Virus record (IMG/VR): IMGVR_UViG_2551306674_000009
DNA length: 11,334 nucleotides
From: a virus
Taxonomy: Duplodnaviria > Heunggongvirae > Uroviricota > Caudoviricetes
Strand: one strand, 5' to 3'
Shown here: positions 1-7,562 of the stretch, piece by piece
Position numbering within the stretch: the first letter of the stretch is position 1
Layout of the letters: each line of letters opens with the position of its first letter
Translations under genes and position numbers: made by a program
Notes under the pieces: model-generated
Databases searched by the model: none
What the model saw: the letters and a program-made list of their open reading frames with translations, nothing else
Told to the model about the DNA's origin: nothing

Positions 1-200
1 TGTCAGTTATCATCTTCGGTTACGGTTATCGGCAGAACGCCCTGCCGCTGACAAGAGCTTATTTGCCTGACCAATCTACTTCACATGATAGATAACTATC
101 ATTTATAACATTTCATTGATTAGCCTTTATTTTTCATTGCGTTACAAATAACAGCCCTGTCAAAAACAGCGAAATTAACTACACCATTAACTACACCGTT

Positions 201-5134: not shown

Positions 5135-5407
5135 TTAGCTGTCCTGGTAATTGCGCCATATTTCATCACCAGCACCATCTATACCCATTTCGGCATAAGT
5201 GCGATCGACTGCCTTTTTCAGGTCTCCGAAATTATCCGGCGGCTCCGGTGCCCTCTGTGCCTTCCTTGAACATTCCAGCCGTCGCATCGTGATGTGATGC
5301 CGTTCCTTGTCTGTCTCCACCAGCTGCATGACTTCACCCCATCGCGCCGCCGCCCTCCGGTAAAAGCCTTTCGCCTCCAGTTCCTCCGCTATGCGGTCAT
5401 GTACCAT
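5135..5407 (-). CDS. PerC-family transcriptional regulator-like protein
   Basis: Motif AEELEAKGFYRRAAARWGEVM resembles the PerC/Pch signature as I recall it; start placed at the internal ATG (MVHDRI) with a GAGGGGG SD rather than the longer ORF-track start at 5527. Confidence 0.55.
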   Translation of the reverse strand: MVHDRIAEELEAKGFYRRAAARWGEVMQLVETDKERHHITMRRLECSRKAQRAPEPPDNFGDLKKAVDRTYAEMGIDGAGDEIWRNYQDS

Positions 5408-5417
5408 CGTCACCCCC

Positions 5418-5713
5418 TCAGAACGAAATATCATCACCGTAAGGGTCATCGCCTCCCGCTGGTGGCTGATTACCCTGTGTGCCTGTGGTTTTGCGTCTGT
5501 TCCCGCCAGGACGGGCAGCACGGGCACTGATTACACTGTCTGCGATAACCTGCCAGCCCTGCCGCGTTTCGCCGTTCTGGCCTGTCCGTCCTGTGCCTGG
5601 CTGCATGGCAAAGATACCGCCATACGCGCCAGCGTCATCGGTGTGCCCTTGCTGGTCTGTTTTACCTGCGGGTCGTCCACCAGCCGCCCGTAAGCGGCTA
5701 TCTGTGCTGTCAT
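5418..5713 (-). pseudogene. SSB-like remnant spanning two reading frames
   Basis: Frame from 5713: MTAQIAAYGRLVDDPQVKQTSKGTPMTLARMAVSL (SSB N-terminus-like); a second frame ending at 5418 is Gly/Gln-rich and ends DDPYGDDISF (SSB acidic tail-like). Start overlaps the upstream stop (ATGA) and the second frame ends 10 nt before the next gene. About 98 codons in total, too short for a full OB fold. Confidence 0.35.
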
Positions 5714-5961
5714 GATTCCACCTCTCCGGTTTTAACGTTGATGGTTGTTACCTGTTCCGCTTCGGCAATCTCCCGTTCTGTCAGCGTGGCAAAGTTTGCC
5801 GCCGCCGTGGTCATGAATGCGCTTATCAGGTCGGGATGTTCCTTCGCGTATCCTTCCCGCGTGTGGCGGTCTATCGTTCTGATTGCCACCTTTAAGGTGT
5901 GCTCAGTCATGTCTAACGCTTTATATTTTGGCTCTGTTCTGTCTCTGCGTTTTTGGGTCAT
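5710..5961 (-). CDS. Hypothetical protein (~83 aa)
   Basis: First ATG with GAGAGG SD at 5961 (ORF-track start at 5991 is GTG and lies inside the iterons); stop overlaps the SSB-like start. Confidence 0.45.
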   Translation of the reverse strand: MTQKRRDRTEPKYKALDMTEHTLKVAIRTIDRHTREGYAKEHPDLISAFMTTAAANFATLTEREIAEAEQVTTINVKTGEVES

Positions 5962-5969
5962 TTCTCGCA

Positions 5970-6165
5970 ACCTCTCACTTTTTCGCCTCACTTTTTCAAG
6001 CGTCTCACTTCGTCGCAGTTGGGATTTTCGGTTTTTCTATGTGTGTGTTTCATAAGTATTTTTTTACCCCTCACTTTTGAGGATGTATACAGGTCGAAAA
6101 GTGAGGGAGAGCGGGCTAATTTTGGCCCTCTTTCTATCCCCCTCGCTTTTGCTCCTCACTTTTAT
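5970..6165. repeat. Putative replication origin: CTCACTTTT iterons flanking an AT-rich stretch
   Basis: Copies at 5974-5982, 5987-5995, 6004-6010 (degenerate), 6070-6078, 6097-6105 (inverted), 6142-6150 (degenerate), 6155-6163; AT-rich 6020-6068; immediately 3' of the rep gene. Confidence 0.65.
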
Positions 6166-7562
6166 AGCGGCGCTACATCATCCCCATCGATACGAATAAC
6201 CCCATCTTTTTCCAGCTTGTACAGCCAGCGCCGGAAGTTTTTCATTTCATACCCCAGCTTTTTCATGTCATCACGTAACAGCGGGATCGTGCACTTGTCG
6301 CCGTTCTGTGTGCGTGAACGGATGCACCCCCATAGCGCGGTATGGTTTTCCGTCTTGTTCCCTGCCTCCTCGATGCGCTCCAGTTCAACAGGAGGGCGCG
6401 GATCATCCACCACCACCAGCGACGTGATTAATTCACCGTCAGCGTCGGTAAAAAGCTCCACCACGCGTAAGTCATATGCGGCTTCTTTGAGTTCCTCCGC
6501 GTCCTTCATTTTGGTGCATGAGATAACCAGCGCTTCGCTTCCTGCGTCCTCCCTGCGTATCCGGTATTCAGCATCCAGCGAAGCACGAAATGCACTGGAA
6601 CCGCGCGCGCCTTTCGTCTCATCCTTGCCGGAATGGTGAACCACCAGCACCGTGGCCCCTGTGCGTCGTTTCAGTTCGTCACAACCACGGATAAACGCCC
6701 CCATATCACGGGAATCATTTTCATCATTCCCACCAAAGCAACGCGCCAGCGTATCCAGAATAATCATGCGTACAGGTTTACCCGTTTCCCGCTCCACCTG
6801 ACGGGCAGCGATAACCATTTCATCAACATCAAGCGGGGCAGCCGGAAAGATGGGGCGGTTTACCAGATACAGATTTTTCACCTGCTCATCGTGCACAACC
6901 TCCCAGGCTTTTACACGACGCGGAACACCTATACCGCCTTCACCAACCACATAGAGAACCGCACCATGTGCAACCCTGCGGCCTCCCCACTGGCGACCAG
7001 TGGCAACATGGCACGCCCACGATCCGGCAAGGAATGATTTATAGGACCCGCTAGCCCCGTATATGCTGCATAGCGATACCGCCGGAATAATCCCCTTAAC
7101 CACGTAATCCAGTTGCGTGTCGTATCCGGTAGATCCAACGCTCATCGGTAGCGTGGTTTTTCGCTGGTGGTTTTTTTCTTCCGCCGGCTCTTTCCCGCGC
7201 ACCCGTTCCAGGTATTCGCGCCAGTTCTCCCGCATATGGCTGTGCATCCCTTCGGGGTAATAATTCGCATCAGTTACACCCGCCGCCGCCAGCTTGTGCG
7301 CAATGGCATTAATATTTGATGGCCTGATGTGGCCTGCCTTGTACAGCCGGACACAATAGCGCCCCTCGTCGATGATTCTCAGGTCTGCCAGTTCATCCAG
7401 TTGATCATCAGCCAGCACAACGGGAGGCACATTATCGCCAGCCAGTCGCCCGTCCTGTTCCTGCCACTGTTTCGCATGTGCCCAGGCATCACTACCCGCA
7501 AAAATAATGACTTCGGTCATCTTGTCGTAAGGCTGTTTTTTTAAGTTCGGTGCGCTTTTCAT
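6162..7562 (-). CDS. Replication initiator/helicase, RepA-like (AAA_25-type RecA-fold ATPase)
   Basis: 466 aa; Walker A GASGSYKS, Walker B-like MIILDTLARCF, VLVVHHSGKD; C-terminal winged-helix-like region; ATGA overlap with the upstream ORF. Confidence 0.8.
   Translation of the reverse strand: MKSAPNLKKQPYDKMTEVIIFAGSDAWAHAKQWQEQDGRLAGDNVPPVVLADDQLDELADLRIIDEGRYCVRLYKAGHIRPSNINAIAHKLAAAGVTDANYYPEGMHSHMRENWREYLERVRGKEPAEEKNHQRKTTLPMSVGSTGYDTQLDYVVKGIIPAVSLCSIYGASGSYKSFLAGSWACHVATGRQWGGRRVAHGAVLYVVGEGGIGVPRRVKAWEVVHDEQVKNLYLVNRPIFPAAPLDVDEMVIAARQVERETGKPVRMIILDTLARCFGGNDENDSRDMGAFIRGCDELKRRTGATVLVVHHSGKDETKGARGSSAFRASLDAEYRIRREDAGSEALVISCTKMKDAEELKEAAYDLRVVELFTDADGELITSLVVVDDPRPPVELERIEEAGNKTENHTALWGCIRSRTQNGDKCTIPLLRDDMKKLGYEMKNFRRWLYKLEKDGVIRIDGDDVAPL

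Follow-up and report, generated by a model that had tools for sequence, protein, structure and literature searches.

Positions 5964-6163 of the DNA analysed here (11,334 nucleotides of the IMG/VR virus record IMGVR_UViG_2551306674_000009, hereafter the window) very probably serve a Gram-negative phage-inducible chromosomal island (PICI) as its Rep-dependent replication origin, a reading to which we give a probability of about 0.85. A first-pass annotation had proposed an iteron-type origin just 3' of the rep helicase gene, and this proposal was supported by the PICI context, by the published position of such origins (PMC6092414), by a layout shared across genera and by covariation between Rep and the repeats. 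For a Rep of the type encoded here, origin function is inferred.

Repeat array downstream of rep

The repeats read as AAAAGTGAG in the sense of rep, with iterons of 9 bp spaced about 12-13 bp apart. The features of the region, in window coordinates and in the direction of transcription, are as follows.

6162-7562, minus strand: rep, encoding a 466-aa initiator-helicase, stop codon TAA at 6162-6164
6237-6239, minus strand: codon AAC of Asn442, the residue just before the predicted recognition helix
6165-6365, minus strand: region coding for the C-terminal winged helix (aa 400-466) of the AlphaFold2 models
6155-6163, minus strand: iteron 1, AAAAGTGAG, overlapping the rep stop TAA by 2 nt
6142-6150, minus strand: iteron 2, AAAAGCGAG, one mismatch
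6097-6105, plus strand: iteron 3, the sole inverted copy, AAAAGTGAG on the plus strand
6084-6091: TGTATACA palindrome separating iterons 3 and 4, which are head to head
6070-6078, minus strand: iteron 4, AAAAGTGAG
6013-6069: AT-rich spacer of 57 nt between iterons 4 and 5
6004-6012, minus strand: iteron 5, CGAAGTGAG, core GTGAG intact
5987-5995, minus strand: iteron 6, AAAAGTGAG
5974-5982, minus strand: iteron 7, AAAAGTGAG
5964-5972, minus strand: degenerate last copy, GGTTGCGAG, within the ribosome-binding region of the next gene
5710-5961, minus strand: 83-aa ORF (PHROG match phrog_1231), start codon ATG at 5961

Allowing at most one mismatch, CTCACTTTT was found 11 times in the window compared with 2.79 expected, a count reached in 0 of 200 shuffles. 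Six of the 11 copies fall in 5974-6163, on the plus strand at 5974, 5987, 6070, 6142 (as CTCGCTTTT) and 6155 and on the minus strand at 6097-6105; the seventh, CTCACTTCG, has two mismatches and lies at 6004-6012. The core GTGAG/CTCAC was similarly concentrated, with 6 of the 17 window copies inside the 196 nt of positions 5970-6165 (binomial P = 2.8e-7). No second iteron cluster was detected anywhere in the window in a search allowing at most one mismatch.

These results agree with the first-pass annotation in the count of seven AAAAGTGAG-type 9-mers at 5974-6163, in the overlap of the end copy with the rep stop codon (6155-6163 shares two bases with the TAA) and in the AT-rich stretch that the copies flank. 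Copies do occur in both orientations, as it had stated, but the array is lopsided, with six direct copies and one inverted copy in the rep sense. Four sites (6070-6163) lie on one side of the spacer and three (5974-6012) on the other; the direct copies on both sides share one orientation, and the inverted copy is rep-proximal. Iterons of opposite orientation on the two sides of the AT-rich region, a rule stated for the SaPIs only (PMC9371898), were therefore not found in this array. As judged by comparison with E. coli variants, origins of this type have about 11 positions for sites, and the window allele is degenerate at four of them (versus, for example, locus L083).

Iterons 3 and 4 together form an 11-bp inverted repeat, for which a single-strand hairpin of -9.6 kcal/mol was calculated (z = -5.6), and the palindrome between them is kept as TGTATACA or TATATA in relatives. 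The spacer at 6013-6069, presumed to be the unwinding element, is 65% A+T compared with 51% for the whole window, and its single strand has no more predicted structure than shuffled sequences (z = +1.8). No DnaA-box or IHF consensus was seen in the spacer when it was read by eye, an informal look rather than a formal test. GC-skew displayed no inflection at the repeat site and is uninformative here, as all genes lie on one strand. A search of the whole window against Rfam (E <= 1) returned only two chance-level matches, both far from the repeats.

The copies had also been described as overlapping the 5' end of the next ORF, and this was not borne out. The mechanical longest ORF begins at GTG 5991 and overlaps the repeats; in RefSeq, the identical gene is given an ATG start that corresponds to window 5961, and homologues begin directly after the last repeat. 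On these comparisons GTG 5991 is unlikely to be the real start. With ATG 5961 as the start, the seven clear iterons end 13 nt upstream of it. Neither NCBIfam nor Pfam gave any match for the 83-aa ORF.

Domain structure of Rep

Rep can be divided into three parts: an N-terminal domain (aa 1-122), a helicase core of RecA fold and AAA_25/RepA type (aa 148-315) and, at the C-terminus, a confidently predicted winged helix (aa ~400-466). The core matched Pfam AAA_25 (E = 2.4e-43), RefSeq names the product 'helicase RepA family protein', and a PDB sequence search returned a single weak match, to RSF1010 RepA (1g8y, E = 0.005). AAA_25 was the only Pfam match, and an SF3 core (D5_N/DUF5906/Pox_D5 or AAA+) was not found. 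As judged from these matches and from the models, Rep is a RecA-fold RepA/DnaB-like (SF4-like) helicase and not of the SF3 type of the SaPIs and of EcCICFT073.

When the full-length AlphaFold2 model (pTM 0.44) was searched with Foldseek, only RecA-fold matches (RadA/Rad51) and noise were obtained, and the C-terminal domain was therefore modelled separately. Its predicted elements are helices at 405-419 and 426-435, a recognition helix at 443-452 and a beta wing at 456-465, with pLDDT values of 74-93 in the full-length model and a mean of 84 when the domain was modelled alone. Foldseek matches to this domain were almost exclusively winged helices, including PcaR/IclR, IdeR/DtxR, MexR and MCM C-terminal domains, at probabilities of 0.9-0.99, TM-scores of about 0.6-0.7 and rmsd values of 2.3-2.6 Å. 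The E-values were weak (0.04-0.2) for this small domain, but every top match was a winged helix. The third helix, FRRWLYKLEK (443-452), is the predicted recognition helix, and residue 442 is predicted to cap its N-terminal end. NCBIfam and Pfam searches yielded nothing for Rep aa 1-131 or for the isolated C-terminal domain.

The N-terminal domain (aa 1-122, window 7197-7562) was predicted as an alpha/beta domain with pLDDT 70-89. The SF3-type Pri-Rep of EcCICFT073, unrelated in its other parts, has this domain too, with 81% nucleotide identity over a block that includes the upstream DUF4222 gene, and the domain may connect helicases of either type with one partner, for instance the DUF4222 protein or a host primase.

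Conservation of the layout across genera

A scan of one genome per species identified 80 Enterobacterales loci whose Rep is 50-72% identical to the window Rep, in genera that include Xenorhabdus, Citrobacter, Kosakonia, Pantoea, Serratia, Pectobacterium and Morganella. The survey also took in seven diverged alleles from E. coli and a circular record from Klebsiella. Counted from the rep stop, rep-proximal sites in the survey loci lie at about -2, +10, (+22), +50 to +58 (inverted) and +82, and sites past the AT-rich gap at +142 to +150, +166 to +170, +178 to +182 and (+190). The first iteron overlaps the rep stop in about 70 relatives as well, placing the repeats immediately 3' of the initiator gene, and its offset (-1/-2) is the same in Xenorhabdus and E. 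coli relatives. Two iteron sets with an AT-rich stretch between them are likewise a shared property: averaged over 83 distinct loci, A+T peaks at 0.67-0.72 between +100 and +130 past the rep stop and is about 0.5 on either side.

The layout is kept and the iteron word varies by lineage, as GTGAG, GTGGG(G) or GTGCGGC. The form AAAAGTGAG(G) was found in the window and Xenorhabdus, AAAAGTGGG(G) in other E. coli alleles and many genera, and AAGTGCGGC in Kosakonia, Phytobacter, Enterobacter, Kluyvera and Klebsiella. In lineages with Lys442 (L049, L053, L058, L065 and others) the first iteron, AAAGTGGGGGAT, lies within the last four rep codons, so that the Rep tails K-V-G-D, K-M-G-D and K-A-G-E are dictated by the iteron.

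At three loci (L079, L080 and L071) a frameshift, truncation or read-through affects the C-terminal domain of Rep, and only 1-2 iteron-like cores are left downstream, which suggests joint decay of initiator and origin. We also considered whether iteron classes diversify to avoid incompatibility of co-resident islands. This idea was rejected, as several genomes hold two elements of the same class (L006/L009, L007/L012 and L053/L054), which argues against strict exclusion.

The circular record, pKp_Goe_795-4 of Klebsiella pneumoniae (L090, CP018459.1), is 16,971 bp long and carries int, capsid, head-tail adaptor and terminase genes. Its Rep is of the window type, with Ser442, and its GTGCGGC iterons keep the layout described above. 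The gene table of the record, which is incomplete, lists 18 CDS, none of them annotated as a second replication gene. The record resembles a capsid-forming satellite that has excised, rather than a plasmid, and would be a natural hint that the module can exist autonomously.

Covariation of Rep residue 442 with iteron base 8

Covariation was assessed in 73 non-redundant Rep-origin pairs, each with at least four sites, where base 8 is the N of GTG-N-G. Residue 442 and base 8 agreed in 73 of 73 pairs, without exception, as follows.

Asn442, base 8 A: 24 pairs
His442, base 8 G: 12 pairs
Lys442, base 8 G: 29 pairs
Ser442, base 8 C: 8 pairs

None of 10,000 label permutations matched this agreement, and base 8 changes at least nine times on the tree of the helicase domain. 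In E. coli, two C-terminal backgrounds, GYEMK-x-FRRWLYKLE and GYD(V/T)K-x-(M/L)(R/K)RWLAKLE, each exist in an Asn/GTGAG and a His/GTGGG version, and all 8-11 sites of one origin switch base together. Textbook side-chain preferences pair Asn with adenine and His or Lys with guanine.

The covariation is strong indirect evidence, drawn from sequence comparison, that the Rep C-terminal domain reads these repeats. Together with the predicted fold, it points to a cognate winged-helix Rep specific for its own iterons. What it describes is a relationship between Rep and iterons, not proof of origin firing.

The island carrying the origin

From its gene content and att core, the element in the window is a Gram-negative PICI, a phage satellite of E. 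coli. The gene order, all on the minus strand, is int - alpA - DUF4222 - rep - repeats - 83-aa ORF - ssb - perC - capsid - decoration - terS, and the products include a tyrosine integrase, AlpA, SSB, PerC, a lambda-E-like capsid protein, a head-decoration protein and a small terminase. Small ORFs lie between alpA and DUF4222, where the near-identical O103:H2 island has an Icd-like and other small ORFs. Taken with the att core given below, this gene order agrees with that of E. coli PICIs. The element thus has the int and alpA genes, unidirectional transcription, specific att site and size (~11 kb) of a PICI. The att site is marked by the following feature.

92-102: att core ATGATAGTTAT, at the left end of the window beside yljB flank sequence

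This core is the cspD-clpS site listed for EcCIIHE3034, and window positions 1-106 are the yljB (cspD-clpS) flank. Despite this att site, the rep-origin allele is of the type found in ycfD-phoQ islands of O157, O103 and O55, and the window int is only ~80% identical to the int of those islands. The island is a mosaic, and no complete E. coli genome matched 80% or more of the window in one place. A survey of 5,426 complete genomes of E. coli found the rep-repeat segment at 99% identity or higher in 369, with O157:H7, O145 and O55:H7 strains among them. EcCIRM12579, among the islands listed in PMC6092414, matches the segment at 99.8% identity inside that island's published coordinates. The feature thus belongs to a published class, and its sequence lies in a listed island.

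Other observations on the island were as follows. A tandem repeat, AATTAACTACACCATTAACTACACCG, at window 173-198 corresponds in reverse complement to what is listed as the 'att core' of EcCIDI14 and also occurs just upstream of int in EcCICFT073 (L002 884-909); the integrase may use these repeats as arm-type sites. The window contains nine GTTAAC palindromes, a total reached by 0 of 200 shuffles, and six of them are packed into 339-569, near the element end; this cluster could be a packaging or regulator site. The ssb gene (window 5531-5713) is truncated: it lacks ~100 nt that the O103:H2 island has (L001 8874-8980), at a junction at 5580-5587 with 8 nt of microhomology, resulting in a frameshift and a stop at 5531-5533. 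A mechanical ORF at 5135-5527, after the ssb stop, continues into perC.

Comparison with known replicons

Fillol-Salom et al. 2018 (PMC6092414) place the origin of Gram-negative PICIs directly 3' of rep and describe it as two sets of iterons with an AT-rich region between them, and the rep-then-origin organization is common to all PICIs identified in that study. There, a rep-ori fragment of EcCICFT073 kept a temperature-sensitive plasmid in a rep- and ori-dependent manner. EcCICFT073 resembles the window in its synteny (DUF4222 - rep - origin - small ORF - ssb - perC). Its initiator, however, is a 584-aa SF3, P4-alpha-like Pri-Rep (D5_N/DUF5906/Pox_D5), in contrast to the AAA_25/RepA protein of the window, and its iterons are TGTCTACC, in both orientations and packed in a 289-nt intergenic region, as opposed to AAAAGTGAG. 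One genomic slot is thus occupied by unlike initiators, each with an iteron of its own. The two islands cease to be homologous at Rep aa ~122 and become so again 24 codons into the ORF that follows (window 5889), indicating that helicase, C-terminal domain and iterons move as one cassette, with which the first ~24 codons of the 83-aa ORF travel.

The SaPI rep-ori (Ubeda et al. 2007, as presented in PMC6092414 and PMC9371898) is a self-contained replicon of a Staphylococcus aureus phage satellite (Qiao et al. 2022, PMC9371898). As in the window, a C-terminal winged helix is combined with short iterons just 3' of the initiator's own gene and an AT-rich region between them. SaPI Reps are SF3/AAA+ 3'-5' helicases, whereas the window Rep has a RecA-fold SF4-like core, and SaPI iterons are 5-6 nt long and face each other across the AT-rich region, whereas those of the window are 9 nt and run nearly all in one direction. 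The first-pass annotation had matched the array to the rep-then-ori layout of satellite replication modules. That match holds for the PICI context, the published origin position and the conserved layout; it does not extend to descent of the initiator, as the window Rep is not homologous to the SF3 initiators of SaPIs and EcCICFT073 and the resemblance is one of architecture only.

IncQ plasmid RSF1010 provides the closest solved relative of the helicase core (RepA, 1g8y) and also has iterons and an AT-rich origin. In RSF1010 a separate RepC binds 20-bp iterons and RepB' primes at the ssi hairpins (ssiA/ssiB), whereas the window protein combines a DNA-binding domain and the helicase in one chain; none of the window ORFs gave a match to a RepC or RepB' family. 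Rep_3-type plasmids (F, R6K, pPS10, RK2) have initiators with tandem winged helices and no helicase, which act on ~17-22 bp iterons and recruit host DnaB; the window initiator, in contrast, is itself a helicase. No Pfam match to Rep_3 was obtained in the ten ORFs scanned, which cover the int-proximal replication/regulation half. The P4 alpha protein is a primase and SF3 helicase whose sites form two clusters kilobases apart (ori/crr), unlike the single cluster next to rep in the window. P4, discussed in PMC6092414, otherwise resembles the window as an E. coli satellite with a multifunctional initiator-helicase acting on short repeated sites. A literature search found no paper on a RepA-type PICI origin beyond PMC6092414.

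Other roles for the repeats

We considered whether the repeats might be Rep-binding sites with a mainly regulatory role, in autoregulation or as a roadblock or gate to read-through into ssb-perC-capsid, with the origin elsewhere. The cluster does lie between rep and the ORF that follows, in a run of genes that all point the same way, its last degenerate copy overlaps a ribosome-binding region, and the covariation speaks for binding rather than firing. We nevertheless regard this explanation as improbable. A consensus scan found no sigma-70-like promoter in 5600-6500, and the gene strand has no terminator in that interval, where the only terminator-like stems are on the plus strand, antisense to the genes. 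An operator has no need of a conserved AT-rich, structure-free spacer between two clusters, the window holds no second iteron cluster, and the syntenic region of EcCICFT073 was required for plasmid maintenance (PMC6092414). The region may have a dual role, as both origin and regulatory site.

Sites for another protein of the island or helper phage are a distinctly more remote prospect. The island encodes terS, AlpA and PerC, and repeat arrays can act as pac sites, so the small terminase, AlpA and PerC were the candidates weighed. Recognition by any of them is unlikely because iteron class tracks the Rep C-terminal domain while downstream packaging modules vary (ClpP-capsid fusion, HK97-like and lambda E-like capsid modules), and the swapped cassette consists of rep and repeats, without terS, alpA or perC. 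Clustering by chance of a purine-rich and A-rich word between genes, conceivable for a motif of 9 nt in A/T-skewed sequence, has a negligible probability given the shuffle and binomial results and is excluded by the comparative data, in which positions are kept across genera with concerted base changes.

Proposed initiation scheme and its implications

With the repeats taken as a Rep-dependent origin, initiation would proceed as follows. Induction of the island by a helper phage would lead to excision and to production of the 466-aa Rep, whose C-terminal winged helix would read the 9-bp iterons AAAAGTGAG, with residue 442 reading base 8. Rep bound to the two iteron clusters would assemble into oligomers on either side of the 57-nt spacer, distort it and melt it, and the RecA-fold RepA/DnaB-like ATPase core would then load as the replicative helicase. 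The island's own SSB, with priming and polymerase functions of the host, would complete initiation. This would be the SaPI scheme run by a helicase of another superfamily.

Some observations count against this reading. SF4-type helicases usually need a loader, and neither a loader nor a primase partner was identified for the window Rep. The only Gram-negative PICI origin tested, that of EcCICFT073, has a non-homologous SF3 initiator. Furthermore, as four of the ~11 site positions are degenerate and ssb is truncated, the window copy could be impaired and may replicate less well than its relatives. We hold at even odds the joint proposal that the fusion of a RecA-fold (SF4-like) helicase to an origin-reading winged helix makes a self-loading initiator-helicase and that residue 442 sets base 8.

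As the rep-then-origin layout of PICIs is already published, the finding itself changes little for the field, to which it adds a precise site map for this origin type. The new points are small: the residue-442/base-8 rule, and an initiator that is SF4-like rather than SF3. Gram-negative PICIs hold at least two unrelated initiator-helicase classes in the same genomic slot. If residue 442 sets base 8, one amino-acid change with a concerted iteron change could switch replicon specificity, and if residue 442 contacts base 8, the specificity of satellite replicons would be re-programmable by design. A testable rule of one residue and one base could guide work on the specificity of satellite replicons and on cross-talk among them.
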